Of a stretch of 64,000 nucleotides of DNA, positions 2,456-64,000 are shown one piece after another (the stretch's first letter is position 1; every line of letters starts with the position of its first letter). The notes below the pieces were generated by a model. The model was not told the origin of the DNA, made no database searches, and saw only the letters and a list, made by a program, of their open reading frames with translations. The translations under genes and the position numbers were made by a program. Source of the DNA: Candidatus Nomurabacteria bacterium (GTDB lineage Bacteria > Patescibacteriota > Patescibacteriia > Magasanikbacterales > UBA922); contig JACKFN010000003.1 of NCBI GenBank assembly GCA_020632445.1, positions 17,118 through 81,117 of the forward strand. Direction: 5' to 3'.

Positions 2456-2457
2456 GT

Positions 2458-5219: not shown

Positions 5220-5236
5220 TCAACCCTACCTTATAC

Positions 5237-5263: not shown

Positions 5264-5316
5264 ATCGACCCAACTCTCCATGTGTGCATAAGTTTTGTGC
5301 CTATATGAAGAGGGTA

Positions 5317-5827: not shown

Positions 5828-8248
<2,421 letters not shown>

Positions 8249-9139: not shown

Positions 9140-9196
9140 CCCCCCCCTGTACGCCTAGGGCAAAACCCACGAGGCGCCCCCACCGCGCCTCAACCT

Positions 9197-9229
9197 CATA
9201 TGTGCTTATAAGTTTTATAGGCACATATG
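9197..9229. repeat. perfect 9-bp inverted repeat (catatgtgc/gcacatatg) around ATAAGTTTTAT core
   Basis: Read directly; a degenerate copy (tgtgcataagttttgtgcctatatgaa) lies at 5283-5310 after the first GC-rich gene; resembles the GTTCATAAGTTCA tail of the cassette module. Confidence 0.5.
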
Positions 9230-9230
9230 A

Positions 9231-9270
9231 AAAACCCCATTGCATATTCGCAACGGGGTTTTTTGTTTTT
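9231..9270. terminator. bidirectional Rho-independent terminator
   Basis: aaaaccccattgc-atattc-gcaacgggg-ttttttgttttt (9-bp stem, one mismatch, A-run and T-run on either side). Confidence 0.55.
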
Positions 9271-9275
9271 ATACA

Positions 9276-9692
9276 CTAGATTATTTCCAATTTTCTCTCT
9301 ATTCTCTTGAGCCTCCAATCCACTTTGTGATTGTTTATTTCGTATTCATCTCGGTGCACTGCATGATCTTTGAGAAAGTTGACTATTTCGAGCATGTCTT
9401 TGAGCCGGTTATCTACTTGGTCAAAGCGTTGATCCATGCCATCGAGGCGCCCATCTATACCGTCAAAACGTTGGTCCATGCCATCGAGGCGCTGATCCAT
9501 GCCATCGAATCGTTGATCCATGCCGTCGAGGCGTTGATCTATGCCATTGAACCTTTGATCTATTCCATCAAAACGTTGGTTCACCTCGATTTTGAACTGA
9601 CTTAGGTTACTTGAAAGGCCTGTGACCACTTCAAGTATCTGAGTTATTTGTCCCTCCGTTGTATTATGCATACACAAATAATGTTTATTCAC
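9276..9692 (-). CDS. small protein with eight tandem heptapeptide repeats (R[FL]DG[IM]DQ)
   Basis: 138 aa; RFDGIDQ RFNGIDQ RLDGMDQ RFDGMDQ RLDGMDQ RFDGIDG RLDGMDQ RFDQVDN in tandem. Confidence 0.55.
   Translation of the reverse strand: MNKHYLCMHNTTEGQITQILEVVTGLSSNLSQFKIEVNQRFDGIDQRFNGIDQRLDGMDQRFDGMDQRLDGMDQRFDGIDGRLDGMDQRFDQVDNRLKDMLEIVNFLKDHAVHRDEYEINNHKVDWRLKRIERKLEII
9417..9580. repeat. 21-bp tandem repeat (~8 units, unit ttgatccatgccatcgaggcg) inside coding sequence
   Basis: Direct reading; encodes the heptapeptide repeats of the minus-strand gene. Confidence 0.8.
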
Positions 9693-9750
9693 CCTGAGGT
9701 GAAAATGATTGATACAGTGAGTATATCTGAAATGAAAATTCTGTCAAACA

Positions 9751-48787: not shown

Positions 48788-50737
48788 TTGTTATTATCTA
48801 TTTATGAATTTAGTATGAATTGGAAAAGAAAGTTACAAACACTTTTCGCTCATGGGGTATATCGTCTGAAAAGACATGAAAAGAGGGACATTGCTACTCT
48901 CATTGTCATTGGAGTACTCCTTGCAGGTGGTGTTGTTTTCGCCAAGGGAATGTTTCTCTCGTCAAGGCAAGTTTCTTCAGATGTAACTACGCAGTACAAG
49001 CGAAGTTACAAGACCGTTCAACCCAAAAAGTTGTCAGACGACAAAATTTTGCTGATCGGTAGTGTACTCTCAAATGAGAGCGCAAGTATTTTTCCACGGC
49101 GTTCTGGAATTGTTGGTGATATTTTGGTTGATATTGGAGATCAAGTACAAAAGGGACAAGTTTTGGCATACTTGCTTCCGGAAGGAGTAGAGAACCAGTC
49201 AAACTTGGAAATACTTACACAAAAAAGTGCTTCTCAAAAAGCATTTGACGACTACCAAAATACGCAGATGGTTGAAGATGCCAATATTGCAAAGATGCAA
49301 CAGAAGCTTGCTGAAATGAAACGTTCATTGCAGTCATTGCGTGATGATAATTATCGTAGTGGTGGAGGGTTGAGATTAGAGAATGAGTCACTTTCGCTCG
49401 CATATAAACAGTTAGCTGTGGCTGAAAAGCAGCTCGAAACGGCTTTGCAAACTCGACAGCCGAGGTTGACGGATGGAAATAACAAGATCAGTCAGGCGCG
49501 CGACTCTGTGCAAGTGGCATTGCAGCATACTTATCAGACAGCAATTGAAGTGGTTACTGGAGGGCAGGGACGGTTTGAAGAAGGTGGAACTCGAATTCTT
49601 TATGAAGCAGACATCAATAGCAGCCTTGGTGTTCTTGATGCAAACATTCGGAATGAAGTAGCTAATCAATTTAATGCAGTACGGTCAATCCTATACGCAT
49701 CAAAGCTCAGTAGTGATGACGATTATTACAGTGCTGCACAAAAAGCTGGGGATCTTTTGGATGCTCTGCAGAGACTAGTGAATGCCTCTGTCGTGAGCAC
49801 ACGCCTCTCTTCAGCGCAGATAAACGATTTGTCGAATAAAATTCACCTCAGTCAGGATAAGTTGTTTACGGCTCATGAAAAGCTGCAAAAGGCGATTGAT
49901 GCCTATCGTGTTCTCGTGGTAGAGATAGATCAAAATATTGCCGTGCTCGAAGAAAAAGTTCTTGGACAAAAGAGCAATGTCGAACTTATGGAGAGCCAAT
50001 GGGAAAAAAGTGGGAGTGAAATTGCTTCAAAGATCGCGGTTATGAATGAAAGTGTAAAGCAGTATGAAAAAGAAATTGAATATGCCAAGGCGCAGGCAAA
50101 ACGAAATGTTGATGCGCAAAAAAATCAATATGCTATCAGTAATGCACAGTACCTCAAAACCGCGGCGCAAAAGGGACACACAGCCATGATTTCACCATTT
50201 GATGGAGTCATTTCTCGAAGAAACATTGAAGTAGGACAGCTTACTATGATGTCAGATGCCGCATTTGAGCTTGTGGACGTGCAGACAACGCTTTCTCAGA
50301 AAGCAAAAAATGAAATTCAATTTGGTCTGCCAGAGGAGTTGCAGTCGGTTCTCTCCGTTGGGGATTTTGTTGACTTTTACTTGCCGGGAGATGAGACCGT
50401 GTGGCATACAGCCGAGGTAACCAGAATGAGCCCGCAGGTTGATCCAGAATTGCATACCTTTACGGTGCAGGCAAAGCTACCGGATGATCTTCGTTTATCA
50501 AATCATAGTAGTGTCCAGGTAAAAGTTATTACAGGAAAGCAAGAGGCCTATGAGGTGGATTCTTCAGCTATCAAAAAAGAAGACGAAAAATTCTATATCT
50601 GGGTACTTGAAAACCCTGAAGCAGAAAAGCCGGTAAAGGTGTATGTAGACGTCATTGAAGAAGATGGGGAATTTGCTCAGATCACGGGTTCTGTAGAGGA
50701 AGGTTCACTGGTGATTCTTAACTATTATGGAAGTTAA
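48788..50737 (+). CDS. RND efflux membrane-fusion (periplasmic adaptor) protein, long coiled-coil type
   Basis: N-terminal TM, biotinyl-lipoyl-like hairpin (GIVGDILVDIGDQVQKGQVLAYL), ~250-aa coiled-coil, C-terminal beta domains; stop abuts RND pump start. Confidence 0.7.
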   Translation: MLLSIYEFSMNWKRKLQTLFAHGVYRLKRHEKRDIATLIVIGVLLAGGVVFAKGMFLSSRQVSSDVTTQYKRSYKTVQPKKLSDDKILLIGSVLSNESASIFPRRSGIVGDILVDIGDQVQKGQVLAYLLPEGVENQSNLEILTQKSASQKAFDDYQNTQMVEDANIAKMQQKLAEMKRSLQSLRDDNYRSGGGLRLENESLSLAYKQLAVAEKQLETALQTRQPRLTDGNNKISQARDSVQVALQHTYQTAIEVVTGGQGRFEEGGTRILYEADINSSLGVLDANIRNEVANQFNAVRSILYASKLSSDDDYYSAAQKAGDLLDALQRLVNASVVSTRLSSAQINDLSNKIHLSQDKLFTAHEKLQKAIDAYRVLVVEIDQNIAVLEEKVLGQKSNVELMESQWEKSGSEIASKIAVMNESVKQYEKEIEYAKAQAKRNVDAQKNQYAISNAQYLKTAAQKGHTAMISPFDGVISRRNIEVGQLTMMSDAAFELVDVQTTLSQKAKNEIQFGLPEELQSVLSVGDFVDFYLPGDETVWHTAEVTRMSPQVDPELHTFTVQAKLPDDLRLSNHSSVQVKVITGKQEAYEVDSSAIKKEDEKFYIWVLENPEAEKPVKVYVDVIEEDGEFAQITGSVEEGSLVILNYYGS

Positions 50738-50739
50738 GT

Positions 50740-53700
50740 ATGATAAACAAGCTTATTAAATGGTTTTTGGACAATCGCTTGGTGACTCTTTTGCTTTTTG
50801 CCATAGTTATGCTTGGAGGAGTGTGGATTTTGCAAAGAACACCTGTTGATGCCATTCCAGATTTGTCAGAAAACCAGGTCATTGTCATGACGCAGTGGCC
50901 GGGACAGAGCCCGCAAAATATTGAAGATCAAGTAACGTATCCACTTACGGTTGCCATGCAGGGACTCGCTGGGGTAAAGGATGTTCGTGCCATGTCACAG
51001 ATGGGGGTATCAATGGTGACGGTCATATTCCAAGATGATATTGATTTGTACTTTGCGCGTGATCGTGTGGTAGAACGGCTCAGTACCGTACGAAAGGTAT
51101 TGCCGGAAGGTGTTATGCCAGAACTTGGTCCTGATGCCACCGGGCTTGGGCAGATCTTTATGTATACTTTGGAAAGTGACAACCATTCGCTTACACAGCT
51201 GCGTAGCATGCAGGATTTCCAGGTTGCGTATGCACTTGGAAGTGTAGACGGAGTTGCTGAAGTTGCATCTATTGGAGGATATGTAAGGACCTATCAGGTC
51301 GTGTTAGATCCTATCAAGCTTGATCAATATGGAGTTCGAATTCAAGATGTGATCACCAGTATAAAGATGGGAAACAATAACGTCTCCGGAAAAGTCGTTG
51401 ATACTGGCGAAAGAGAAATTGCCATTCAAGGGATAGGCTTTTTTGAGAAGGTAGAGGACATCGCGAGCATGGTTATCAAGATCAAGGACGATGGGACGGC
51501 TCTGACCGTGCAGGATATTGGTGATGTCCGAGAATCTGGTGCTTTTCGAAGAGGAATTCTTGCCAGTCAACATGCAGAAAAAGTTGGAGGGGTGGTTGTC
51601 ATGCGGTATGGAGAAAATCCGCTTCAGGTTATTGAGGCAGTGAAAAAAGAAATAGAAAAAGTCCAGAAGGCACTCCCCGAGGGGGTCAAAATAGTGCCGT
51701 TCTACGACAGAACGAGACTGATTGTCAGTGCCATCGACACCATGAAAAGTGTACTGATTCAAGAACTTATCATAACCGGGATTATTTTAGCAATTTTCCT
51801 TGCGAGTTTTGGGGCAACCATCATTACCGCAATTGCGCTTGTGATTGGAGTCGTTATTTCTTTTATTCTCATGTATTTTGGAGGTATTCCTTCGAACATT
51901 ATGAGTTTGGGGGGGATTGCCATTGCTGTGGGAACTATGGTTGATTCAGCAATTGTCGTCATAGAAAACATTTACCGAAAATTGCTTGAAAATAAAGGAG
52001 AAACGTTTGAGGAAAGGCTAAAATTGGTAAAAGAAGCAACGCTTGAGGTTGGAAAGCCGATCGTGTTTGCCATCTTTATCATCATTTTGTCATTTGTTCC
52101 GATCTTTACACTGCAGGGAATGGAGGGGAAACTCTTTTCCCCACTTGCATACACGAATATGTTTGCGATGATTGGAGCGCTCATTACAGCACTGTTTTTG
52201 GTGCCAATACTTGCGCTTTACTTCATGAAAGGAAAACTGAAGCAGGATGAGGAGATAAAGGTTGTTCGCAGGCTGAAAAGTTGGTATGAGCCAATTTTAA
52301 AAAAAGCACTGCTATATAGAAAGGCAACACTGGGAATTATGGTTGGTTTGGTAGCTATTGGTGGGGTGCTTATGACGCAAATTGGGTCTGAGTTTATGCC
52401 ACCACTTGATGAGGGTGCTATTATGTACATGCCAATGACCGTGCCAAATGTATCAGAACGAAAAGCAACAGAGCTTTTACTCCAAACCAATGAGATTATT
52501 GCGCAGTTTCCTGAAGTAGAAACTGTTGTTGGTAAAGCTGGGAGAGCAAATACAGCAACAGACCCTGCACCGCTTGCCATGCTAGAGACATTTGTCACGC
52601 TCAAGCCAAAGTCCGAGTGGAGGGATGGTATGACCAAGTCAACACTTGTCGCTGAGATAAATAGAGCCATTCAGATAGATAAGCTGTGGAATGGATTTAC
52701 ACAGCCAATTATTGGACGCGTAGACATGCTTTCAACGGGGATACGTGCCCAAGTTGGAATAAAGATTTTTGGGAATGATCCGAACACACTAGAGCAGCTC
52801 GCTATTGAGACAGAAAATCTTATGAACCAGGTTCCTGGTGCATCAGGAGTGGCTGCCATTCGTACGACTGGCCTCAAGTATCTTAATGTTGATCTCGATG
52901 AAGGAAAACTCTCTGAGTTCGGGATTCCAAAGATGGATGCTTTGACACTTATCTCTGCAGGAGTTGGAGGAAACATTGCGTCGTACACCATCGAAGGAAG
53001 AGAGCGTTATGGTATAGAATTGCGTCTCAAGCAGGATTTTCGCAGCGATGTCGATGACGTTAAGTCGCTTATGCTCACAGGAAGAAGCGGTAACAGGGTG
53101 CCACTCTCAAGTGTTGCAGACATACGACTTGAAAACGGACCCGCAACCATTAATAGTGAAAACGGTGTTATACGAAGTGCTGTGCAGATGAATGTGGTTG
53201 GAACGGATTTAGGATCTTTTGTAGAAAGTGGTCAAGAGTTCTTGCAAGAGAATTTGGAGCTTCCCGATGGATACTCAGTAGAGTGGAGCGGGCAATACGA
53301 AAACCAGATACGCGCGAAAAAGCGACTATCGATTATTGTCCCTATCGTTATTTTCATCATTTTTTTGGTTCTCTACTTTACGTACAAGGATTTTGGATTG
53401 GTATCCATTGTGATGCTTTCTATACCACTATCTATGGTTGGAGGAATAGTTGCGCTTTTTATTGCCCAGTACAATCTTTCCGTTGCTGTGTGGGTTGGTT
53501 TTATATCGCTCTTTGGAAATGCCGTGGAGACGGGGGTGGTGATTGTCGTCTATTTGGAGAATGCGTATCGAAAACAATTTGGTATGAAACTGATTGATGA
53601 TGAAAATGAGGGTGCATCTAGTGATAGACCGGCGCTTCCTGTTACTAAAGAGGGAATACATGATGCCGTTTTGAAGGGGGCAACTCTTCGTTTGCGACCT

Positions 53701-53898
53701 GTACTGATGACTGCATTTACCTCTGTGATTGGTCTTTTTCCGATGCTTTATGCTACCGGAGTGGGGGCTGAGGTGCAAAAACCACTTGCGATTGTTGTTG
53801 TTGGTGGATTGACGACTTCTGTTGTTTTGACGCTTGTGGTCATTCCAGTGCTTTTTAGCATGCTGCGAGAGTGGCAGATGAAAAATCAAAAGTATTAA
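50740..53898 (+). CDS. RND efflux transporter, heavy-metal (CusA/CzcA-like) family
   Basis: 1052 aa, 12 TM, two large periplasmic loops; N-terminus typical of CusA/CzcA. Confidence 0.85.
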   Translation: MINKLIKWFLDNRLVTLLLFAIVMLGGVWILQRTPVDAIPDLSENQVIVMTQWPGQSPQNIEDQVTYPLTVAMQGLAGVKDVRAMSQMGVSMVTVIFQDDIDLYFARDRVVERLSTVRKVLPEGVMPELGPDATGLGQIFMYTLESDNHSLTQLRSMQDFQVAYALGSVDGVAEVASIGGYVRTYQVVLDPIKLDQYGVRIQDVITSIKMGNNNVSGKVVDTGEREIAIQGIGFFEKVEDIASMVIKIKDDGTALTVQDIGDVRESGAFRRGILASQHAEKVGGVVVMRYGENPLQVIEAVKKEIEKVQKALPEGVKIVPFYDRTRLIVSAIDTMKSVLIQELIITGIILAIFLASFGATIITAIALVIGVVISFILMYFGGIPSNIMSLGGIAIAVGTMVDSAIVVIENIYRKLLENKGETFEERLKLVKEATLEVGKPIVFAIFIIILSFVPIFTLQGMEGKLFSPLAYTNMFAMIGALITALFLVPILALYFMKGKLKQDEEIKVVRRLKSWYEPILKKALLYRKATLGIMVGLVAIGGVLMTQIGSEFMPPLDEGAIMYMPMTVPNVSERKATELLLQTNEIIAQFPEVETVVGKAGRANTATDPAPLAMLETFVTLKPKSEWRDGMTKSTLVAEINRAIQIDKLWNGFTQPIIGRVDMLSTGIRAQVGIKIFGNDPNTLEQLAIETENLMNQVPGASGVAAIRTTGLKYLNVDLDEGKLSEFGIPKMDALTLISAGVGGNIASYTIEGRERYGIELRLKQDFRSDVDDVKSLMLTGRSGNRVPLSSVADIRLENGPATINSENGVIRSAVQMNVVGTDLGSFVESGQEFLQENLELPDGYSVEWSGQYENQIRAKKRLSIIVPIVIFIIFLVLYFTYKDFGLVSIVMLSIPLSMVGGIVALFIAQYNLSVAVWVGFISLFGNAVETGVVIVVYLENAYRKQFGMKLIDDENEGASSDRPALPVTKEGIHDAVLKGATLRLRPVLMTAFTSVIGLFPMLYATGVGAEVQKPLAIVVVGGLTTSVVLTLVVIPVLFSMLREWQMKNQKY

Positions 53899-54028
53899 GT
53901 TACTGCGCCCAAGGCGCATTCGTCTTCGCGAAAAATCTAAAACAAATCATTTATGTTTAACTCATTTGCATATGTAAACTCGTATCAGGCAGTAATGTAT
54001 TTATCTATTTATTTAAAAGACTAGTAAT

Positions 54029-54232
54029 ATGAAAAAAGTAACAACTCTTTCACTTGCAATACTCGCTTTGTTTGGGGTTATGTTTTTTGCGGGTTGTGGA
54101 AAGCAGGAGCCACTTACAGAGCAGCAACAAGCCGAGCAGCATGGTATGACTTTAGAAGAGTATCGTGATACCAAAGAAGCTGCTGCAAGAATGAATATGA
54201 ATGTTGAAGAGCACATGAACATGGATCATTAA
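54029..54232 (+). CDS. small Met/His-rich lipoprotein (putative metal-binding/chaperone)
   Basis: Lipobox FAGC; C-terminal MNMNVEEHMNMDH. Confidence 0.5.
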   Translation: MKKVTTLSLAILALFGVMFFAGCGKQEPLTEQQQAEQHGMTLEEYRDTKEAAARMNMNVEEHMNMDH

Positions 54233-54319
54233 TTTTTAACGAGTAGTGTATAATGAAATAGGAGTTTTATCTTAAACAAAGAGTGAGGGGACTTTTGTCC
54301 CTTCACTTAATCGAACGAT

Positions 54320-56371
54320 ATGACCACACAACACAAGGATAATTGTCATAATCAATCAAAATCGAGTGAGCATCATCACCAAAATGGTGATCACAAAAGT
54401 CACAATAAAGAACATACAGGCAGTGAAAGTTGTCATACCGGCATGGTAGATGAATTTAAAAAACGTTTTTGGATTAGCTTGATACTGACACTGCCTGTAT
54501 TGTTTCTGTCGCCCATGATTAGGGGATTTTTTCATGTGCAAGAAATGTTGACTTTTGCAGGCGACACGTATGTATTATTTTTTCTTGCTACACTTATCTT
54601 TGTATATGGTGGTTGGCCTTTTTTGAGAGGTCTTGTGACAGAGGTGGGTTCAAAAAAACCTGGCATGATGACGCTTATTAGTGTTGCTATCTTGGTGGGA
54701 TTTGCATATAGTGCTGCGGTTGTTTTCGGTTTGCCAGGGAAACTCTTTTTTTGGGAAATAGCCACGCTTATAGACGTCATGCTTTTGGGACATTGGATTG
54801 AAATGCGTTCGGTAGCCGGCGCAAGCAAGGCTCTTGAGGCTTTGGCGGGGCTCGTGCCTTCTCATGCCCATAAACTTCAGGGCACAGAGATCGAGGATGT
54901 TCCTGTAAATGAGCTTCATGTGGATGATGTTGTTTTGGTGCGTCCGGGAGAGAAGATCCCTGTTGATGGAGTTATCATCGAGGGTCAATCTTTTGTGAAT
55001 GAGGCTTTACTCACTGGAGAATCACAGCCTGCATCAAGGGCTGTCGGGGAAAAAGTCATCGGAGGATCTCTCAATGGAGATGGTTCATTGCATGTAAAGA
55101 TTACAAAAGTGGGCAAAGATTCATTTGTATCTCAGGTTATTGAGCTTGTTCGCCAGTCACAGGAAAGTAAATCAAAGATGCAAGATCTTGCATCTCGTGC
55201 TGCATTTTATTTAACTATCATAGCGTTGAGTGTTGGTGTATTCACCATGTTTGTGTGGTTTTATGTAGTAGAACAAAGTTTTGTTTTTGCACTGGAGAGA
55301 ACAGTTACGGTTATGGTAATTACATGTCCACATGCCCTTGGGCTTGCGGTGCCGCTTGTGGTAGCGGTGAGTACATCTCTTGCCGCACAAAGTGGTTTGC
55401 TTATACGCAATAGGGTTGCATTTGAACGGGCAAGGAATTTGCAATGTGTTGTTTTTGACAAAACCGGAACGCTTACTGAAGGAAACTTTGGTATCACCGA
55501 TGTGCGACTTGCAAAAGGAGTAGATATGAGTGAGGAGAAACTTATTACTTTGGCAGCTTCTGTGGAGTCACATTCACAGCATCCAATTGCACATGCCATC
55601 GCTAGCGCCGACAAAAAGAAAGAGAGAGTGACAGAGTTTAAATCTTTTTCAGGAAAGGGGGTACAGGGGGTGATTGATGGTAAGATTGTTCAAGTTATGA
55701 GTCCGGGGTATGTTCGTGAGAAAAAAATAGATCTGCATGGACTCGTTGTTGAAGACCTCATGAAGGAGGGCAAAACGGTAGTATTCGTATTGGTTAATGA
55801 AAATATCGTCGGTGCTTTGGCCCTCGCCGATGTTGTTCGTACACAAGCAAGAGGGGCAATAGAAAGGCTACATTCCATGGGTATTAAAACCATGATGATT
55901 ACTGGTGACAATGAAAAAGTTGCTGCTTGGGTTGCAAAGGAGATTGGACTTGATGATTATTTTTCTGAAGTTTTGCCAGAGCAGAAGGCTCAGAAGATTC
56001 AAGAAATACAAAAACATGGTTTGACAGTGGCTATGGTAGGCGATGGAGTGAACGACGCTCCTGCGCTTGCAGCGGCAGATGTTGGTATTGCTATTGGTGC
56101 CGGGACGGATGTGGCAGTGGAAACGGCGGATATTATTTTGGTCAAAGATAACCCACAAGATGTAGCTGCCATCTTGGGATTGGCTCGAGCGACTTATAGA
56201 AAAATGATACAAAATTTGATTTGGGCCACGGGGTACAATGCGATCGCTATTCCGTTGGCCGCCGGTGTGCTGTACTCTTACGGTGTAGTCATGGGGCCTG
56301 CATTAGGAGCAATTTTGATGTCACTGTCAACGGTAATTGTGGCTATCAATGCCAAGTTTTTGCGTGTTTAG
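54320..56371 (+). CDS. P1B-type heavy-metal ATPase, CopB-like (CPH motif, His-rich N-terminus)
   Basis: His-rich N-terminus (EHHHQNGDHKSHNKEH), ITCPHALGLA (CPH), DKTGTLT, MVGDGVNDAPAL. Confidence 0.9.
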   Translation: MTTQHKDNCHNQSKSSEHHHQNGDHKSHNKEHTGSESCHTGMVDEFKKRFWISLILTLPVLFLSPMIRGFFHVQEMLTFAGDTYVLFFLATLIFVYGGWPFLRGLVTEVGSKKPGMMTLISVAILVGFAYSAAVVFGLPGKLFFWEIATLIDVMLLGHWIEMRSVAGASKALEALAGLVPSHAHKLQGTEIEDVPVNELHVDDVVLVRPGEKIPVDGVIIEGQSFVNEALLTGESQPASRAVGEKVIGGSLNGDGSLHVKITKVGKDSFVSQVIELVRQSQESKSKMQDLASRAAFYLTIIALSVGVFTMFVWFYVVEQSFVFALERTVTVMVITCPHALGLAVPLVVAVSTSLAAQSGLLIRNRVAFERARNLQCVVFDKTGTLTEGNFGITDVRLAKGVDMSEEKLITLAASVESHSQHPIAHAIASADKKKERVTEFKSFSGKGVQGVIDGKIVQVMSPGYVREKKIDLHGLVVEDLMKEGKTVVFVLVNENIVGALALADVVRTQARGAIERLHSMGIKTMMITGDNEKVAAWVAKEIGLDDYFSEVLPEQKAQKIQEIQKHGLTVAMVGDGVNDAPALAAADVGIAIGAGTDVAVETADIILVKDNPQDVAAILGLARATYRKMIQNLIWATGYNAIAIPLAAGVLYSYGVVMGPALGAILMSLSTVIVAINAKFLRV

Positions 56372-56375
56372 ATCA

Positions 56376-56642
56376 TTATTTTGAGATGAGCGTCCAAACT
56401 CCAACCATAATAAACCCAACTCCCGCCAAAAGTTTTAATGTTTTTTCGTCGAGATAATTGGAGATGGTGCTTCCCAAAAGTACGCCGATGGCTGTAGTGG
56501 CTATAAGAGCAAGTGATGCCCCAAGAAAAATAGTTGACTTGGGGTAGTTTTTTTCTGCGGCAAATAAAAGTGTGGCAATTTGCGTTTTGTCTCCAAGCTC
56601 TGCAAGAAAAATGGTAATAAATGTTGTAATGAATATTTTCAT
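56376..56642 (-). CDS. UPF0016/GDT1 (TMEM165) family single-repeat membrane protein
   Basis: 88 aa, ELGDKTQ signature motif, three TM helices. Confidence 0.75.
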   Translation of the reverse strand: MKIFITTFITIFLAELGDKTQIATLLFAAEKNYPKSTIFLGASLALIATTAIGVLLGSTISNYLDEKTLKLLAGVGFIMVGVWTLISK

Positions 56643-56860
56643 AATAGTATCACATAGTTTATGTGTGGATTTCTTTATCGGTCTTTTGCGTTATTATATC
56701 TTATACTCTTAGTTTGTTTATTATATCAGATGTTGATCATCAGTTTGATTTTCATCTCGTCAATAGAAAGAAGTTGTTAAAATGAGCGACGAATTACGGG
56801 GCGAGGGATTGTAGAGGGACTTGAAATTATTGTTTAACTGAGTAATTGTTAATCAAATCA

Positions 56861-57307
56861 CTACTTATACTCCATAATCCAGTCCTTCTTTTTTTTGCCT
56901 ATTTTTACAAAACCGAGTTTTTCATAAAATGTCTGGGCGATTATATTCACTGGGGCGACTTCAAGTCTGATTGGGATGTGTCGTGCATCGGATTCTTTAA
57001 TCAAATCAATCATGATTGCGCTACCAATACCTTTTTTTTGAAACGTTGGTAGAATTTGTATTCCGCCTATGTATATTTGATCAGGTGACCTTACTACTCT
57101 CAGACGGCCTACGTCTGTATTATTCCATCCAATGATTTGTATTTTTTTAGGATCAAACTTTTCGGAATATTCTTGAAATTCCTTATCGAGGTCTAGTTTG
57201 AGCTGTGGTGTATGAGCCTTTCTTACAGGTAGCATTGCCTTTGTAGAAACATCAAATAAAAAGGGAAGATCTGCTTGTGTTGCAGTACGTAAGGTATAGG
57301 GAGTCAT
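56861..57307 (-). CDS. GNAT family N-acetyltransferase
   Basis: IQILPTFQKKGIGSAIM...FYEKLGF. Confidence 0.75.
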   Translation of the reverse strand: MTPYTLRTATQADLPFLFDVSTKAMLPVRKAHTPQLKLDLDKEFQEYSEKFDPKKIQIIGWNNTDVGRLRVVRSPDQIYIGGIQILPTFQKKGIGSAIMIDLIKESDARHIPIRLEVAPVNIIAQTFYEKLGFVKIGKKKKDWIMEYK

Positions 57308-57424
57308 AAGAGAATTAAGTATGGTTCGATTTTAGATAAAGGTGAACACAAAACGTGGTTTAATTAAGGCAGCAATTATGGAACAGGAGGATCGTAGAGG
57401 GTGTGGGAATTCTCGTAAAAAAAG

Positions 57425-58066
57425 CTATAGAGTTTCAATAACTTCTTTTGCAGAAATGTCATAAAGCTTTGCAGCTTTTTGTCCTGTTTTATCTAAATAC
57501 TGTTTCACGAGATAGAATCCCAGAGAGTACCCTGCCCAGCGAGGTATGTTCAGATCCGGATTTCCGAAAAACCATGAAGCATGATCATAAGGAGAGGTCC
57601 AGTATTCTTTTGTTGCAATGGGTTGAAGATTTGCAAGTCCATTTTCAGAAAGGGCTGTGCACCATGGCTGGGGTTTTCCACCGAGTAGCTCCATTTGAAA
57701 GTGATCTGCCAGTCCCTCAGAGATGATTGCCTCACCCAGGGTGTTTCCATAGCCCGGTCCATTCCAGCGAAGACTGTGGTGGTATTCGTGAGCAATCGTC
57801 TTGGGTATTTCAAGTATGAGATTTTCTTTGAAGTTTTTGAAATTTGCATCGAGGGACAGGTAAATAGTATATGCATCTGGTGTATAGCCACCTATTCCTG
57901 TTTCTGGCACAACATTGAGTGGTTCGTCCTTCACAACAACATCGATAGGTATGAGTGGGAGAGTATCTACCATTCTGTTGAAGGTTTCATCAATGCTATT
58001 TATAATAAACTTTTCGTACTCGTTTAAAGCAGAGGATGCATTCAATAAGTGTATTTTATGTTTCAT
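57425..58066 (-). CDS. putative HExxH zinc metallopeptidase-like protein
   Basis: IAHEYHHS (HExxH); start at MKHKIH, downstream of module copy C promoter. Confidence 0.45.
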   Translation of the reverse strand: MKHKIHLLNASSALNEYEKFIINSIDETFNRMVDTLPLIPIDVVVKDEPLNVVPETGIGGYTPDAYTIYLSLDANFKNFKENLILEIPKTIAHEYHHSLRWNGPGYGNTLGEAIISEGLADHFQMELLGGKPQPWCTALSENGLANLQPIATKEYWTSPYDHASWFFGNPDLNIPRWAGYSLGFYLVKQYLDKTGQKAAKLYDISAKEVIETL

Positions 58067-58089
58067 AGAGCATTTCAAATTTTGTATGT

Positions 58090-58290
58090 AGTATAGCAGA
58101 TTAACAGATTGAGTTCGATTCCTACCGCCCACAATAAAAAAATGCCGCTAAAATTAGCGACGAATTACACAGCAGGGGATAGTAGAGGAAGTTGGAACCA
58201 GAATACAGAATAGGGAAGGCTATGTAAGTATACCTAGTGTATAAGTGGGAGGGTGTACCCCCAGGTGGACTCACTATATTTGATTAAAGT
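58090..58290. repeat. divergent copy of the cassette module (copy C)
   Basis: gtatagcagattaacagattgagttcgattcctaccgcccaca...gccgctaaaattagcgacgaattac...ggaagttggaaccagaatacagaatagggaaggctatg... Confidence 0.5.
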
Positions 58291-58721
58291 GCCGATACGA
58301 ATTTTTGCTGAAATGAATAGCCTTTACAAAAAGGCTATTTTGTGTTACAAATTTATTAGACATGAACTTAGGAGCTGAGCATGAGTATTCCGTCATTCAC
58401 GCTGTGGGATCTTCGTCGAGTCGTGAAGGTTGAGGTCCTGCTTCAGGAGCGAGACTTGCAGTTCACACGGACGATGGGACTCAGCTGACCGACTTCAATC
58501 GAGGTCCGTCAGTGGTTCGTCGGTACGGACTTCATGGGCATCAGGGTCATCGTCGGCATGCTGCAGGCTAATACGCGCTTCCGCTTCAGACACGAGGGTT
58601 CGCGTCCTGCACTGGTGCCCGACCTGGGTGCGGACCGAGATTACATTCTGCCCGAGGATAAGTAGGCGCCACCTCCTGGGCTTCGTAATCAATTTTTACT
58701 TGATAGAAATTGTTGGAATTT

Positions 58722-58750
58722 AAAACACCTTTTAGCAGGTGTTTTTGTAA
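58722..58750 (+). terminator. Rho-independent terminator after GC-rich mini-insert
   Basis: aaaacacct-tttagc-aggtgttttt, perfect 6-bp stem + T-run. Confidence 0.55.
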
Positions 58751-59451
58751 AATTGATATGAAGAGTTGTCGTGAGTTTTTATACAAACACCTATGTTTTT
58801 TCCACCTTTGAAATTATCCACGTTTTTAGTATAATATTCATGAAGTGCTTCGTCATCTTCGTTTGGCTCTTGACTTCATCTTCTCAGATTGTTGAAGCTG
58901 TTTTCCTTGATCTTCATAAGCTCTGAACCACAGTTCCTTGTGATCGGTATTTCTTTTTACAGCAGAGTCAGAAAGACCGGCAAATCCCATTTGTCTCGGA
59001 TAATAGTATACGGCCCAGAATTTCACCATCTTCTGGAAGCATATTCAGGGAGTTTGTTTACTTTTGCGTCCCAATAGAGATTACCTATCCCATACATCAT
59101 CAAAATGACCACCATCTTGGAGGATAGGTTTGCTTCCATTTGGTCGTAGTCTGTGGTTTTGGCAGGGACGTATGTTCATAGTATTGGTCAGGATACCCGC
59201 TTCCAGTATGGCGATTTTTTGTGTTAATTTTAAATCTTTGATAAAAACTTTGGAATTTTTTGCCTTGAATGTCCATAGGGTTGTCAGCTTGGGCCTATCC
59301 CTAGGTAAATTGCTTAAGAAGATATGTTTTGCCACCGTGTTCAGCAAGTCCACCATATTTTGCACCATTGAGATAAACGGGGATTTTCACTCAAAATATA
59401 ATCTGCGAAGTCTACATATCCTAGATATTTTTTCAAAACTGTACCTATCTA

Positions 59452-60900
59452 CTATATTAACATCCGGACTAATGAACTCATTTTGGACCGAATCAATGCT
59501 CCTGATTGACAAACTCCACTCAGCATCTTTACCGAAATTTCATGACTATCAATGTTTGATCGCACTTCTTCGAGCTTTATCTTTCCTAGAATAAATTCAA
59601 TGTACTCAATAATTACTCTGTGTTTAGCATTCTCACCAGTAAGTCCAGAATCAACTCTATTTTCTAATTCATAGCCAGAAATTTTTGTAAAAGGTTTTTT
59701 TTCACCATACATAGTAGCATTTCTAAAGACATATATGTCAAAATGATTATTCCCACCAACATCAAATTGATTAGAGTTGTCAATATCGTGCTGTGCGCTT
59801 GACTGATAGTTATGAATATGAATAGATTGAAAAGGACCCTGTTGAAGAATGAATTGTTGATGTTTTACCCTACCATTTCCTTTATACAAGTCTGGACTAG
59901 GTATAACCCAAGAACGTGCAGAAAAGCTACTGTGTAATAAACTTACTGAAATATTACAAACATTTTCACCATCCTTAAGAAGTCTGATTATATTAAATGA
60001 GTCTAACTCACCATAATCTCGGACCTGACTTAGGTATTCTTTTCGAGAAAGACCTGTTTTTTCATAATTGTCACCAAAGTAGCGAATATAATCTTCTTCA
60101 TTAATACAAACATCAAGACCAACGGGAGTTAATGGTGATGAAAAAAACTCAAGTTCATCAACCGCTTTCTCTTTAACTTGACTAGTTTTGTATAACTGCC
60201 AAGCCATATCTAAAAGATGATAGCCACTATGTGAGACTTTTCCCATGCCCTCAAAAAGCCCATGGGAATCCTGAAATAATACCTCTCGAGGAAACCTCCA
60301 AGAGCCATCCGCATGCATAATTTGCATAGAAGTGATTGGCACATTGAATTTTTTCGATGTTTCTAATACCAATTCCTTGACCTTATCAAAACCATGTTCA
60401 TACCTCCTTTGAACATTTACTGAAAAAAGAGTTGGCTCTTTTTTTTGTTGTAATTTATATAGCTCAAGAAGCTCATTGTAGTCGTCAATTAAGGATCTTG
60501 CTTGATTGATATCAACACTTACCCATTTCCTGGTTGAAACAGGCTTATCCATTAAAATATGTAAGCCCCTACGAAGAGCCCACTCAGCGTATACTTTGTG
60601 AGCTGTCGGTTCAGTTGCTATGACTACACCATTTATATTGTGTCGAATAGTCAAATCATCTAAAGCCTCCATTGATGATTTTGGGATACTTCTAGATGGG
60701 TCAAAAGGATCAAGGTAGAGCATCTCCATATCATATTCATTGTCAGTAATATAATTATCTATTAGATCTTTCTGGGGGGATATATCTACTGCTGCAACAA
60801 GTTTAACTGGATAGTCCTTAGCAAGCTTAAAAAAAGCAGGGACATAGATACGCCTTGCATGTGGCCCAACACCAATAACTAATACATTAACTGTTTTCAT
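59452..60900 (-). CDS. Gfo/Idh/MocA-family NAD(P)-dependent oxidoreductase (long form)
   Basis: MKTVNVLVIGVGPHARRIYVPAF Rossmann N-terminus, EPTAHKVYAEWAL, 482 aa. Confidence 0.55.
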   Translation of the reverse strand: MKTVNVLVIGVGPHARRIYVPAFFKLAKDYPVKLVAAVDISPQKDLIDNYITDNEYDMEMLYLDPFDPSRSIPKSSMEALDDLTIRHNINGVVIATEPTAHKVYAEWALRRGLHILMDKPVSTRKWVSVDINQARSLIDDYNELLELYKLQQKKEPTLFSVNVQRRYEHGFDKVKELVLETSKKFNVPITSMQIMHADGSWRFPREVLFQDSHGLFEGMGKVSHSGYHLLDMAWQLYKTSQVKEKAVDELEFFSSPLTPVGLDVCINEEDYIRYFGDNYEKTGLSRKEYLSQVRDYGELDSFNIIRLLKDGENVCNISVSLLHSSFSARSWVIPSPDLYKGNGRVKHQQFILQQGPFQSIHIHNYQSSAQHDIDNSNQFDVGGNNHFDIYVFRNATMYGEKKPFTKISGYELENRVDSGLTGENAKHRVIIEYIEFILGKIKLEEVRSNIDSHEISVKMLSGVCQSGALIRSKMSSLVRMLI

Positions 60901-61018
60901 ATTCTTATGCTTTGTATGATAGAATGATTTGTTTTAAAACAAATCATTGACACAACATAATAATTCCTGAATAATACTCATAATACTAATTTCTTATGTG
61001 TAGAACAAGTTTTTCCCT

Positions 61019-61831
61019 ATGAATAAAAAAAATCAGTGGCCAATAGTACAGATTGATCCAAGTTACAGTGCTGAAATATGCGCACTCCTTTCAAAACTTT
61101 CGTCCAATAATATTTCTGCCATTCAGATTCAAAACTTTTTGCAACCAAATGAATTGAATATTATTATAGAAAACATGCGTTCACAGGATATAAACTGGTA
61201 CGAAGGCAAAAAGAATGAGCAAGGTAGAATTGGGATTAGTACTACTGAGTATCATTATTTAGAGAACGGGAAGCAAAAGTACTTTGATCTGGTCACACAA
61301 GCCGACAAGGTTCAAGATCAGATATTTGATGGTGTAGAAAACCCAATTAACCGAATAATCAAACTGTTTTCATCTACGTTCGAACCTAAAATAGCAACAG
61401 AGTCTTCTATGCAGAACTCTAAGTACTTTTCAGGTTTAGTTAGAGCAATGGGAGCCAAAAGTACTTTGCATTTTGACTATGCTGTAGACCAACTTCCTGG
61501 ATGGAGTGTAAGTGATTTAGAAGATCAATATGCACTTGTGCTACATCTACAAGTTGCAGAAAAAGGAGGAGAGCTTAATGTGTATAATCGCCAATGGGAG
61601 CCTGCTGATGAAAAATTCAACAATGATGTAGGACAGAAAGGTACTTATGGATTTACTGAAGATTTTTTACAAGATACACCATATGCAACTATAACACCAT
61701 CATCAGGAGATCTTATTATATTTAGATCACGAAATTTTCATCAAGTTGCTGCTATAGAGTCAAGCAAACCTAGATTAACATTTGGTACTTTTATGGGCCT
61801 AAAAAACAATACTCTTTCGCTCTGGAGTTAG
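61019..61831 (+). CDS. 2OG-Fe(II) oxygenase superfamily protein (tentative)
   Basis: LHFDY (HxD) and NFHQV second His spaced as in PhyH/prolyl-hydroxylase-like enzymes. Confidence 0.5.
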   Translation: MNKKNQWPIVQIDPSYSAEICALLSKLSSNNISAIQIQNFLQPNELNIIIENMRSQDINWYEGKKNEQGRIGISTTEYHYLENGKQKYFDLVTQADKVQDQIFDGVENPINRIIKLFSSTFEPKIATESSMQNSKYFSGLVRAMGAKSTLHFDYAVDQLPGWSVSDLEDQYALVLHLQVAEKGGELNVYNRQWEPADEKFNNDVGQKGTYGFTEDFLQDTPYATITPSSGDLIIFRSRNFHQVAAIESSKPRLTFGTFMGLKNNTLSLWS

Positions 61832-61898
61832 TATAGACTTAAAAAGTCATTAAGTCCTACTACAGGAATTAAAAACTTTGAATCGTCAAAGTAAAAAA

Positions 61899-62732
61899 TT
61901 ACCACCTTTTTGAGCTAAAAAATATATCAAACTCTTTCATAATTTCATTTGTCATCGGGCCAACTACCCCGTCTCCAACAGGCTTGCCAGATATTTTTGT
62001 AACAGGCATAATATTTTTACTAGTCGCGGTGATAAAAACCTCTGAGGCTGTTTGAAATTCGGTCACTGAGAAATCCTTAGCTTTTACATGAAATGAAAGT
62101 GGTAAATCATTTAGAATAATTCCTCTTGTGATTCCTTCTAAAACCTTTGTACGTGGGGTAATAAGTGAACCATTTATCACGGCAAATATATTTGATCGGG
62201 TTCCTTCACGTACTAAACCTTGCGAATGATATATCACTTCATCTATATCATTAGATATTGCTCCAAGCTCACGTATTGCCTGGATATAATTGGTGGTTTT
62301 TGCTTCTGGTTCATACCGTTGAAATTCAGAAAGTAGTACGTGAACACCATTTTTGTAGTTTTGGGGCGAGCACTTAATCCTGGATTCAACCATAATTACA
62401 ATCGTAGGTATGTCTGCCGGTTTGAGCGTCCAAGTTGGTCCTCCCGAGACAATTAGTCTCATTACTTTTTCACCTTCAATTTCTGTATTAGCTTCAAAAG
62501 TTTGTAACACCCATTGGGCTACTTGTTCCTTTGACCAAGGTAACTTAAGATCAATTGATCTACAGGATTGAAAAAGCCTATCAATATGCCTTTGCAGCAT
62601 AAAAGGGCGTTCTGATGTGGTCATCATGAATTCAAAAGCCGCATGTCCCCGTGTGTAACCTAAATCAAGTGGGGATATTTGTAAGTCTTCTAGACTTACG
62701 AGTTTACCGTTAATAAAATGTATATATTCCAT
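61899..62732 (-). CDS. class IV (fold type IV) PLP aminotransferase (BCAT / D-amino-acid aminotransferase / ADC lyase family)
   Basis: EGTRSNIFAV...GSLITP...VLEGITRG motifs. Confidence 0.8.
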   Translation of the reverse strand: MEYIHFINGKLVSLEDLQISPLDLGYTRGHAAFEFMMTTSERPFMLQRHIDRLFQSCRSIDLKLPWSKEQVAQWVLQTFEANTEIEGEKVMRLIVSGGPTWTLKPADIPTIVIMVESRIKCSPQNYKNGVHVLLSEFQRYEPEAKTTNYIQAIRELGAISNDIDEVIYHSQGLVREGTRSNIFAVINGSLITPRTKVLEGITRGIILNDLPLSFHVKAKDFSVTEFQTASEVFITATSKNIMPVTKISGKPVGDGVVGPMTNEIMKEFDIFFSSKRW

Positions 62733-62911
62733 TGAGCTATTGCTAATAAAAAGAAAGTTTTACAAAAAAATGGAAATAATTGTGGCACATTCTTCACAGA
62801 TCTTTTGAAAAAGATTTAGAGCTGTCCTAAAATTACTTCTTGAAGTGGTGTGGGCTGGTGTGGGATTTTCTGGTGTGGGATTTTTTTGTACCAGCCCAAT
62901 AGCTGGATCAA

Positions 62912-63961
62912 CTACTTGTTTAGGTTGATAAGCTGAGGTCGGATACCGAAAGTAGAGCGAAGGTCGTCAGGCGTCATTTCCGGATGCTTTTGTTGGATCT
63001 TTTCCGCTCTCGCGAGAATTCTCCGTAGGGCATCTTCTTCTTGTCGGATTACAGACTTCATCTTTTTTGGGCATTTGGAGTCTGTGATAGACGCCAAGAG
63101 ATGTTCAATTACATCAACGAGGCCGCCCGCCTGTATCCAGATTTCCTCAATAAGCTTCCGCAACACCTTTCGGAGCGCAGAAGCATGCTTTTTTTTGCCC
63201 GGAAGTAGTCCCTCTCCCAGAAGTGCTTCAATGACCTGGAAGAGATTGGCCATGTAGTGAGCATCTCCAGTACTCAAGTGAGGGATTTTAGCCTGAAGGT
63301 GCTTGGTGCACTCTCTCCAAGGCCCTGCCGTTTGTGAACAATCTCCACTCAGGGCGATCTCAACTCTTCCCAGGCCAATTCCAAGGTCGTAGGCGCCAAA
63401 GCCATTGTATTCAACATCGCTTCCACGAGATACACCATCAATGTGCACGATCCTGCCTAGCTGTACATAGCTATCAAGTTCCTCAAGCACACTTTGGAAC
63501 TTGACCCCACGGAATTGAGCTGGTACGAACCTTGCAACAACCCCTATGCCGTGCAAATCTCCTTCCCCAAAACTCCACTCATGCTTCAGGCTCTCTTCGT
63601 CATCGAACATGAAAATTTGTTTTTCGGCGATGCCGGCGGCAAGAAGTGCACTTTTGAAGCCGTGATTTGATGGAGCACTGAAAACCAGATGCTCCCTCGA
63701 AAGTCCGAGCACTTCGAGCACTTCGATGAAGTAAGCTACAGCCACCTCATGATTGATGCCAAAAAGCCCACTCCCGAGCATATCGAACAACGACGTCAAC
63801 TGGAGTTTCGTCCGCAGATCATCTAGTGACCCACTGCTGCCGCCGAGACGAAGGCATCGTTGCACCAGTGCAAAGTTGTGCCTTGGGGCTGTACCTGTGA
63901 ACATCGGCTTGAAGGGGGTCACCGTAGCGTTGGTGAACAGGATTGTCGGATCATCGATCAC
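62912..63961 (-). CDS. alanyl-tRNA synthetase catalytic-domain-like stand-alone protein (class II aaRS fold), possibly N-terminally incomplete
   Basis: LFTNATVTPFKPMF...QRCLRLGG...LTSLFDMLGSGLFG...GIGLGRVEIALSG parallels AlaRS LFTNAGM.QFK..F.G...QKC.RAGGKHNDL...FFEMLGN.SFG...GMGLER. Only ~350 aa with no editing or C-Ala domains. Composition is more GC-rich than the neighbours. Confidence 0.55.
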   Translation of the reverse strand: MIDDPTILFTNATVTPFKPMFTGTAPRHNFALVQRCLRLGGSSGSLDDLRTKLQLTSLFDMLGSGLFGINHEVAVAYFIEVLEVLGLSREHLVFSAPSNHGFKSALLAAGIAEKQIFMFDDEESLKHEWSFGEGDLHGIGVVARFVPAQFRGVKFQSVLEELDSYVQLGRIVHIDGVSRGSDVEYNGFGAYDLGIGLGRVEIALSGDCSQTAGPWRECTKHLQAKIPHLSTGDAHYMANLFQVIEALLGEGLLPGKKKHASALRKVLRKLIEEIWIQAGGLVDVIEHLLASITDSKCPKKMKSVIRQEEDALRRILARAEKIQQKHPEMTPDDLRSTFGIRPQLINLNK

Positions 63962-64000
63962 GAGAGGGAACGAGTCATAGACCGTAAACCCCCTCTTCTT

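Follow-up and report, generated by a model that had tools for sequence, protein, structure and literature searches.

By analogy, the closest known system to the genes described here is formed by AcmF, AcmD and AcmE of ascamycin biosynthesis in Streptomyces. According to the parts of a 2026 review that deal with these enzymes (PMC12945691), AcmF is a truncated protein resembling alanyl-tRNA synthetase (AlaRS) that consists of the aminoacylation and tRNA-recognition domains, and it moves alanine from Ala-tRNA to the sulfamate nitrogen of dealanylascamycin, which is held in the former adenylate site. AcmD, the second AlaRS of the cluster, makes Ala-tRNA and is resistant to the product, and AcmE is a hydrolase that removes the alanine. 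Two replacements in AcmF, N219Q (the pocket Asn) and D232E, are counted there as disabling adenylate formation. Here we analyze an AlaRS-like gene at the end of a 64,000-nucleotide stretch of a Candidatus Nomurabacteria genome (hereafter the window; contig JACKFN010000003.1, G000:C10:17118-81117). The source genome comprises 1.08 Mb in 16 contigs and has a GC content of ~0.43.

The gene is a paralogue of alaS, not a fragment or pseudogene of it, and its homologues recur with the same partner genes in related genomes. We tentatively propose, with a confidence short of even, that the protein is an AcmF-like aminoacyl-transfer enzyme carrying out the coupling step of a five-gene small-molecule pathway. 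An initial annotation made from the window alone had read the gene as an aminoacyl-tRNA synthetase (aaRS) paralogue in a tailoring pathway, which would be wrong if the gene were a piece of alaS or if its neighbors belonged to unrelated operons. Our analysis supports that reading, and neither of these situations applies.

A truncated paralogue of alanyl-tRNA synthetase

The gene on which the analysis centers is the following:

62912..64000, minus strand, coding sequence running on to window-equivalent 64039: AlaRS-like protein with aminoacylation and tRNA-recognition domains only (Pfam tRNA-synt_2c)

The open reading frame (ORF) is open on its 5' side at the end of the window, and a further 39 nt lie beyond base 64000. 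Reading the contig past the window (locus L002) revealed three possible start codons. The true N-terminus, which the initial annotation had expected to lie there, is at the ATG at window-equivalent position 64039, which has AAGGAG 6 nt upstream and gives a protein of 375 aa. This reading is identical to the database gene call (P0003) and agrees with the N-termini of most homologues. The protein is thus short, as first noted, but longer than the ~350 aa then estimated. Residue numbers used below follow the 382-aa reading (P0001), and 7 must be subtracted for the 375-aa form.

The AlaRS motif core recognized at the outset is present in the translation (LFTNA, QRCLRLGGSSGS, F.MLGSG.FG and GIGLGRVE). 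The part of the ORF within the window matches Pfam tRNA-synt_2c (PF01411) with E 5.5e-19 and 68.5 bits (cut-off 30.3). When compared with the PDB, the family profile matches N-terminal fragments of bacterial AlaRS over nearly its full length (best 9jdn, E 7e-48), and an AlphaFold2 model (pLDDT 87.5, pTM 0.84) gives Foldseek TM scores of 0.73 to 9jc7 and 3hxu. The C-terminus coincides with the point where the E. coli AlaRS catalytic fragment stops (equivalent of ~residue 410-440). The tRNA-recognition domain is kept, and neither the editing domain (tRNA_SAD, PF07973) nor the C-Ala domain was found in the protein; the alaS of related locus L006 has PF07973.

A separate alaS occurs on contig C1 of the same genome (a 663-aa ORF, 353 bits to PF01411), and the family profile finds only these two genes in the source genome. 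Moreover, the AlaRS-like protein scores far below the equivalog cut-offs for genuine AlaRS (TIGR00344, 64.5 bits against 457.05; NF002436, 23.5 against 529), shares ~22% identity with canonical AlaRS, and is a member of a conserved family in whose alignment of 31 sequences 44 columns are invariant.

A word-indexed search returned 116 homologues at E up to 0.001, nearly all of 366-392 aa and with 29-60% identity. Where a name is given, they are called hypothetical protein, alanyl-tRNA synthetase or alanine--tRNA ligase-related protein, and where the source is named it is a Patescibacteria-type bin. An exhaustive profile search of 1.84 billion representatives (50% identity clusters) identified 21 clusters above 190 bits, all of at most 414 aa. 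Because the next matches, at no more than 180 bits, are already full-length AlaRS, the family is small and sharply set apart. Contigs from one genome per species contain 17 loci, 12 with Patescibacteria-type labels, 3 assigned to other phyla and 2 unlabelled. With the window protein as query and E up to 1e-30, the gene was found in none of the other 239 genomes of the order (240 searched, 204 of high quality), and a sample of 401 genomes of the class yielded it once. It is missing from two genomes that belong to the same genus. We found no published description of the family in the literature on AlaRS paralogues, Patescibacteria, Saccharibacteria and AcmF, a survey whose coverage left most subscription journals outside.

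With its full catalytic and tRNA-recognition architecture and intact adenylate-site residues, the protein might be a true tRNA synthetase in addition to the housekeeping one, serving as a drug-resistant spare AlaRS or charging tRNA with an unusual amino acid made by its neighbors. Resistant aaRS copies are well known in biosynthetic clusters, AcmD being an example in the sections of the review consulted (PMC12945691). We consider this explanation improbable, however, given the low identity and equivalog score, the lack of an editing domain, the altered pocket strand (see below), the absence from 239 of 240 genomes of the order, and the lack of any enzyme in the module that consumes charged tRNA. 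In those relatives that carry an extra AlaRS core, the role of resistant copy is better suited to that near-canonical core. ARAGORN identified no tRNA genes in L002, and Rfam gave no match in window 56000-64000 at E up to 0.1.

Active site and aminoacyl donor

The best PDB match of the family is Methylomonas AlaRS. In its structure with ATP and alanine, as described in the relevant part of the source report (PMC12143591), Arg68 touches the alpha-phosphate, Phe89 and Arg232 sandwich the adenine, Val204 packs against the methyl group of alanine, and Asp225 (Asp235 in E. coli) contacts the alpha-amino group. The aligned residues in the window protein are R71, F92, R232, V205 and D225, respectively. 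R71, F92 and R232 are each present in 31 of 31 family sequences and D225 in 30; V205 occurs in 22, with Ile in the other 9. Thus, both the small alanyl pocket and the adenine-stacking pair persist.

Other parts of the site have changed. The pocket strand, E-I-W-N in canonical AlaRS, reads Q200-L-G-R203 in the window protein. The Gln and Arg are common to 22 of the 31 sequences, and 9 more distant members keep the Glu and Asn. The alaS of the source genome itself has E-I-G-N, so only the Glu-to-Gln and Asn-to-Arg replacements are specific to this clade. In addition, the canonical GGKHND is replaced by GGSSGS. The C-terminal helical domain of the family has conserved basic residues (K290, R297, K298, R301, R346 and K358), a pattern compatible with continued tRNA binding. 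The Asp and Asn that we take to be the readers of the G3:U70 pair were at one stage considered as an argument against recognition of tRNA-Ala. This argument was dropped, as Gln occupies the aligned Asp position in the housekeeping alaS of the source genome, and these residues are not used as evidence here.

If the protein is AcmF-like, it would no longer charge tRNA and would instead use Ala-tRNA produced by the normal AlaRS, with the acceptor held in the former ATP/adenylate site. A direct experimental precedent for the idea, put forward in the initial annotation, that an aaRS paralogue could form an amide is provided by AcmF (PMC12945691).

The main rival explanation is a self-adenylating, tRNA-independent ligase that would form alanyl adenylate (Ala-AMP) from alanine and ATP and pass the alanyl group to a free amine or alcohol. 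The acceptor would enter where the tRNA 3' end normally would, and the product would be the same kind of alanyl conjugate. Such a ligase would account for the retention of the residues that hold ATP and alanine (R71, F92, R232, D225 and V205) and for the lack of a dedicated extra AlaRS in the source genome, and the Arg that replaces the pocket Asn could hold an acceptor by an anionic group. However, the pocket Asn, critical for adenylate formation in the portion of the review that covers AcmF (PMC12945691), is replaced, as is the Glu of the same strand (by Gln). A self-adenylating ligase would also leave unexplained the retained tRNA-recognition domain with its conserved basic residues and the extra AlaRS cores that recur next to the gene in relatives. 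We regard it as rather unlikely.

A conserved five-gene set

Four further genes and one spacer complete the set:

59452..60900, minus strand: Gfo/Idh/MocA-family NAD(P) dehydrogenase, 482 aa, with an extended C-terminal half (Pfam GFO_IDH_MocA, 1.4e-08)
61019..61831, plus strand: WelO5-family Fe(II)/2-oxoglutarate (2OG) oxygenase of the hydroxylase type, 270 aa (Pfam WelO5, 6e-25)
61899..62732, minus strand: class-IV (fold-type IV) pyridoxal phosphate (PLP) aminotransferase, 277 aa (Pfam Aminotran_4, 1.1e-36)
62733..62911, no strand: spacer between the aminotransferase and AlaRS-like genes, with a short tandem repeat, at the left end of the AlaRS-like/S51 cassette
Window-equivalent 64099-64809, minus strand, outside the window and upstream of the AlaRS-like gene: S51 serine peptidase (Pfam PF03575, 1.4e-22)

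The three neighbors named in the initial annotation (aminotransferase, 2OG oxygenase-like protein and Gfo/Idh/MocA oxidoreductase) are confirmed by these Pfam matches, but that list was incomplete because the fifth gene lies just past the window.

In 11 related genome loci (L005-L015), the AlaRS-like proteins share 45-58% identity with that of the window. All 11 also encode the class-IV aminotransferase, the WelO5-like oxygenase and the 482-aa dehydrogenase. Homologous clusters of the kind anticipated therefore exist, and this joint occurrence argues against a chance meeting of unrelated operons. The S51 gene is present in 10 of the 11; blastp found none in L006. The usual gene order is aminotransferase (+), oxygenase (-), dehydrogenase (+), S51 (+) and AlaRS-like (+), and in 10 of 10 other loci 4 nt are shared between the end of the dehydrogenase gene and the beginning of the S51 gene. 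Five loci carry an additional gene for a ~220-aa protein with a weak, sub-threshold match to YqcI/YcgG, a family described as heme guanidine N-hydroxylases (PMC12866846). This gene is absent from the source genome.

Scanning metagenomes with distant dehydrogenase relatives as seeds yielded 80 loci, 16 of which encode the module-type dehydrogenase (>730 bits). Nine of the 16 have the AlaRS-like gene, five end before its slot and two (L038 and L079) have something else in its place; in metagenome contigs of sufficient length, the partner genes also accompany the AlaRS-like gene. One locus, L067, has genes for an HlyD-type membrane-fusion protein, a 233-aa ORF and a MacB/FtsX-type permease directly after the module (5937-9485), possibly an export system for the module product. 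In L012 the whole module occurs twice in tandem (129-10571, period 6252 bp), either through real duplication or as an assembly artefact (a repeat or circular element).

The remaining 64 of the 80 metagenome loci have a more distant dehydrogenase in other gene company, with none of the module genes, and we thus rejected these relatives as a guide to the chemistry. Their neighborhoods (among L024-L103) appear uncharacterized as far as examined. In 28 loci, a ~455-aa thiamine diphosphate enzyme is encoded directly downstream of the distant dehydrogenase. The same neighborhood includes a PLP enzyme resembling serine hydroxymethyltransferase, an alanine racemase, deoxynucleoside-kinase-like and thymidylate-kinase-like proteins and an HDAC-like deacetylase. 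Another type of neighborhood comprises TauD, a GT28 glycosyltransferase, a D-2-hydroxyacid dehydrogenase, a polysaccharide deacetylase and a radical S-adenosylmethionine (SAM) enzyme.

Partner enzymes and a possible pathway

The catalytic motifs are kept in all four partner enzymes (11-12 orthologues each). In WelO5-type carrier-independent halogenases, the carboxylate of the facial triad is replaced by Gly or Ala (H-x-G/A), making room for the halide. A halogenase was ruled out for the module oxygenase, because H151-F-D153...H250 is invariant in 12 orthologues. Thus, the 2OG oxygenase noted initially is indeed an oxygenase and can be narrowed to the hydroxylase type. Its nearest PDB sequences are WelO5-type, and a structural match in the Atlas has a TM score of 0.87.

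The dehydrogenase has conserved GxGxxA, DKP and SHSGYH motifs, and a sequence search of the PDB returned nothing for it at E up to 0.01. The top Foldseek matches of its AlphaFold2 model (pLDDT 88.5) are sugar and cyclitol dehydrogenases. These fold relatives, which include glucuronide 3-dehydrogenase, oxidative glycosidases, C-glycoside 3-oxidase and scyllo-inositol dehydrogenase, act on ring hydroxyls.

All 12 transaminase orthologues have the catalytic Lys (in AKTTNY). In the PDB, archaeal branched-chain aminotransferases (BCATs, ~4e-34) match best, and branched-chain and D-amino-acid transaminases (D-ATAs) are closest by sequence. Fold-type IV enzymes bind the substrate carboxylate through a Tyr polarized by an Arg in BCATs, or through Arg, His and Tyr in D-ATAs (PMC5131300). 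The module enzyme has an invariant Val at the BCAT Tyr position (Tyr-x-Arg becomes Val-x-Arg, with the Arg kept), an alignment that is ambiguous by one residue. No D-ATA Arg/His loop was seen, as read from the PDB alignment and orthologue conservation. In the S51 protein, the GMSAGA motif with the nucleophilic Ser is conserved in 11 orthologues, and the protein does not reach the equivalog cut-offs for cyanophycinase and PepE.

The simplest scheme in which each enzyme has a role would lead from C-H to C-NH-alanyl. The Fe/2OG hydroxylase would install a hydroxyl group (C-H to C-OH), the dehydrogenase would oxidize it to a ketone (C-OH to C=O), and the class-IV transaminase would convert the ketone to an amine (C=O to C-NH2). 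The AlaRS-like protein would then acylate the amine with alanine, or perhaps glycine or serine (C-NH2 to C-NH-alanyl), and the S51 hydrolase would strip the aminoacyl group for activation, self-protection or recycling. The scaffold may be an amino acid, a sugar-like ring or a nucleoside. What the analysis shows is the domain content, the catalytic residues retained or altered, the joint inheritance of the five genes, and the rarity and mosaic history of the module; the sequence of steps, the identification of the acyl group as alanine, its delivery by tRNA and the kind of acceptor are inferred.

The same genes could instead form a catabolic or salvage module for a scavenged aminoacylated or peptide-like compound, which S51 would cleave and the other enzymes would process, with the AlaRS-like protein as a binding or re-activating component. 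S51 enzymes are hydrolases, and genomes of ~1 Mb with few biosynthetic genes depend on scavenging. The 4-nt overlap in 10 of 10 other loci also links S51 more closely with the dehydrogenase than with the AlaRS-like gene. However, hydroxylase, dehydrogenase and transaminase followed by an aaRS-type coupler reads as build-up, the conserved set includes no uptake transporter although one locus (L067) has an exporter, and the extra AlaRS cores would remain unexplained. We give salvage little credence.

Extra AlaRS cores and a substitute protein

Some relatives encode a further AlaRS-type protein. In L007, L011 and L074, a gene for a near-canonical truncated AlaRS core (431-453 aa) lies upstream of the aminotransferase. 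At the same site in L015, just upstream of the aminotransferase (3107-3343), is a 78-aa AlaRS-type fragment that is probably a relic of such a core. In genomes G001 and G002, the truncated core is a third AlaRS-type gene, beside a full-length alaS. In terms of the AcmF-like pathway proposed here, the AlaRS-like protein would take the place of AcmF, the accompanying hydrolase that of AcmE and the truncated cores that of AcmD.

In L018, L020 and L021, truncated cores also sit in tandem with distant members of the family. These loci, together with L017 (and L016), encode distant AlaRS-like proteins (27-35% identity) with a different conserved gene set: a truncated AlaRS core joined by a stop/start overlap, two to three SAM methyltransferases, an S66 peptidase (LD-carboxypeptidase/MccF family) and a 369-376-aa class-II aaRS core of the Asp/Lys/Asn type. 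L016 additionally has an Orn/DAP (ornithine/diaminopimelate) decarboxylase-like protein and two dCTP-deaminase-like proteins. From its gene content, this set looks like a second module based on aaRS paralogues. A small serine hydrolase accompanies the family, S51 in the main clade and S66 in several of the distant-clade loci.

The metagenome loci L038 and L079 encode the aminotransferase, hydroxylase, dehydrogenase and S51 protein, and in place of the AlaRS-like gene have an ORF of 385 or 376 aa. The two ORFs are homologous (30% identity, E 6e-46), and their family occurs only in these two among all loci examined. Neither matches a Pfam family at E up to 0.001, their family profile has no PDB match at E up to 1, and hhalign shows no relationship to the AlaRS-like family. 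In the Atlas, however, the substitute ORF lies near clusters in which 10-14% of members carry the core of histidyl-tRNA synthetase (HisRS; PF13393). This model is touched by 3 of 20 members of the substitute family (best E 6.6e-5), and a profile-profile comparison with HisRS gives a weak match (hhalign E 0.053) in which RPE.T, motif 2, GLDYY and GGGRYD follow in order over 224 columns. The ~380-aa substitute is thus a probable, if still tentative, very divergent HisRS-like class-II aaRS core. Beside the module variant in L038 (10239-13088) is a gene for a 949-aa leucyl-tRNA synthetase with a NUDIX domain inserted after the editing domain (residues 411-515, 7.7e-13).

As the slot can apparently be filled by a protein of the HisRS/HisZ kind, its occupant might be a non-catalytic regulatory subunit that senses alanine or a nucleotide and controls a neighboring enzyme, in the manner of HisZ for HisG. 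Regulatory aaRS paralogues such as HisZ do exist. They usually lose the catalytic residues, however, and the two Arg and the Asp are invariant or nearly so in the AlaRS-like family, which makes a purely regulatory role very improbable.

Several points weigh against an AcmF-like role. The motif-2 Arg, motif-3 Arg, stacking Phe and Asp are all retained, and the protein could therefore still make Ala-AMP. AcmF is described as having lost most of its activation residues, and here only the pocket Asn and Glu have changed. In addition, the likeness to AcmF is one of published description (PMC12945691), and kinship in sequence is at present a possibility. For these two reasons we do not assign the protein to an AcmF family. 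The source genome, with just two PF01411 genes, has no extra AlaRS core, and the HisRS-like assignment of the substitute is statistically weak (E 0.053; 3 of 20 with PF13393). The hints about the substrate conflict, as the dehydrogenase fold is sugar- or cyclitol-like and the transaminase is amino-acid-like yet has neither the carboxylate-binding Tyr nor the Arg/His, and the hydroxylase family acts on free small molecules. The function of the module is here deduced from its genes.

A mosaic and apparently mobile module

The flanks of the module match genome G140 of the same genus at the DNA level (window 50096-58718 with contig C4, and L002 from 6995 onward with C11). Window-equivalent ~58720-65880, in between, has no DNA match in G140. 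The ORF-less segment at window 58320-58718, within a 1.3-kb gene-free region, is 79% identical to G140, compared with 67-72% in neighboring coding sequence. Structured RNA was not indicated for window 58320-58720 (no Rfam match; fold z -1.43 and -0.58). Remnants of a type-B S51, YqcI-like or AlaRS-like gene (types as defined below) were sought in window 58100-59500 and rejected (best tblastn E ~0.5; hmmsearch E at least 0.39). A variable region follows the module (L002 6442-19001, window-equivalent 65324-77883) and has patchy DNA matches to the same-genus genome. It encodes a PNPOx-like protein, DUF2779, an APH-family kinase, a type III restriction-modification pair (ResIII and an N6_N4 methylase), two ORFs without family and a Toprim primase-like protein.

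Maximum-likelihood trees were constructed from 12 rows (the window and L005-L015, with one copy of the duplicated L012), a sample confined to the main-clade genome loci. They split each gene into type A (L005, L006, L012 and L013) and type B (L007-L011, L014 and L015), except that in the hydroxylase tree L012 is sister to type B. The window AlaRS-like gene falls into type A (support 100/100). The window dehydrogenase and aminotransferase (100/100) and hydroxylase (99/99) fall into type B, and the window S51 is on a long branch outside the type-B clade (95/98). The AlaRS-like gene was first noted to be GC-richer than its neighbors, and the difference proves stronger than claimed: its GC content is 0.50 and its GC at third codon positions (GC3) 0.53, compared with 0.36-0.40 and 0.27-0.32 for the module partners. 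In other loci the GC3 gap between the AlaRS-like gene and its partners is small. A type-A AlaRS-like gene, type-B partners and the jump in GC3 together show that the window copy is a chimera of two module lineages, in which the five functions have been rejoined.

The order found in the window, with S51, AlaRS-like and aminotransferase genes on one strand, occurs in no other locus. The architecture is not an assembly artefact, because independent contigs bridge the junctions, that between aminotransferase and AlaRS-like gene in a contig of a different study (run X3) and that between AlaRS-like gene and S51 in contigs of three studies. The DNA occurs in habitats of the wastewater type. One run X1 contig (depth 2.8) joins L002 3894 to 6321 with 34 other letters between, a single-contig hint of a variant without exactly the AlaRS-like and S51 pair. 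Tandem repeats occur at window 62846-62884 (L002 3964-4002), consisting of TGGTGTGGG three times and CTGGTGTGGGATTTT twice (the latter at L002 3973-4002). They lie near the left end of the cassette that is missing from the run X1 contig. No convincing flanking direct or inverted repeats and no transposase were found at the cassette ends.

A type-A coupler together with type-B genes, a cassette-less variant and a probable HisRS-like substitute suggest that aaRS-derived coupling enzymes behave as exchangeable cassettes. Such behavior would be of interest for enzyme evolution and for chemo-enzymatic aminoacylation. A more specific possibility, which we regard as quite doubtful, is a mobile, cassette-swapping pathway in ultra-small, host-dependent bacteria for an antimetabolite of the aminoacyl-nucleoside type, such as a mimic of Ala-AMP or a puromycin-like alanyl-aminonucleoside. 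The dehydrogenase and transaminase would turn a ring hydroxyl into an amine, the AlaRS-derived enzyme would alanylate it in the former adenylate site and S51 would be a de-alanylating switch. The extra AlaRS cores would then be self-resistance genes, and a HisRS-like protein in the slot would point to interchangeable couplers that change the attached amino acid. Should the product be an antimetabolite, it may be relevant to the dealings of such episymbionts with hosts or competitors.

AcmF, reported in 2024, is the only AlaRS-derived biosynthetic enzyme characterized, and the AlaRS-like family would be a second, independent example. It would differ in keeping the adenylate clamp and having Arg for the pocket Asn, in its partners and in residing in very small genomes, of a kind usually thought nearly devoid of secondary metabolism. 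As the module is short (~5.4 kb), complete and self-contained, its product could be sought by expressing the five genes.

Comparison with known systems

The AlaRS-like protein resembles canonical AlaRS fragments (E. coli AlaRS441, 3hxu; Methylomonas AlaRS429, 9jc7 and 9jdn) in its fold over the whole length, in motifs 1-3, in the Trp of NFW and in a helical domain that ends in T(F/Y)G. It differs in being ~60 residues shorter, in its ~22% identity and in the changes of EIWN to QLGR and GGKHND to GGSSGS.

Dehydrogenase and transaminase pairs produce amino sugars and aminonucleosides in other pathways, such as NtdC/NtdA for kanosamine and Pur10/Pur4 for puromycin. In such pairs, a Gfo/Idh/MocA dehydrogenase makes the ketone and a PLP transaminase the amine, which in puromycin is then aminoacylated. 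The NtdA/Pur4-type transaminases are fold-type I, unlike the fold-type IV enzyme of the module, and in the module a hydroxylase precedes the pair. The same logic of aminoacyl-tRNA-dependent transfer of an amino acid onto a small-molecule amine is found in SbzA of SB-203208 biosynthesis, as outlined in the passages of the review on this enzyme (PMC12945691). SbzA is IleRS-like, however, and thus a class I protein of unrelated fold.

In the review's account (PMC12945691), AcmF has lost most ATP- and alanine-activation residues, with Asn-to-Gln and Asp-to-Glu changes. In contrast, the AlaRS-like family keeps the Phe/Arg clamp, the motif-3 Arg and the Asp, and has Asn-to-Arg and Glu-to-Gln changes. 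The partner enzymes also differ wholly from those of the ascamycin cluster, with no sulfamate or nucleoside genes recognized in the module, and the hosts have ultra-small genomes. Nevertheless, going by the review, the two proteins are truncated to the same two domains, and in both the pocket Asn is substituted, whereas the motif-2 Arg and an acidic residue that serves the alanyl amino group are retained. Genes for tailoring enzymes lie next to each of them, as does that for a hydrolase that could remove the alanyl group (AcmE there, S51 here), and the second AlaRS of the ascamycin cluster, AcmD, would have its counterpart in the truncated cores of some relatives.

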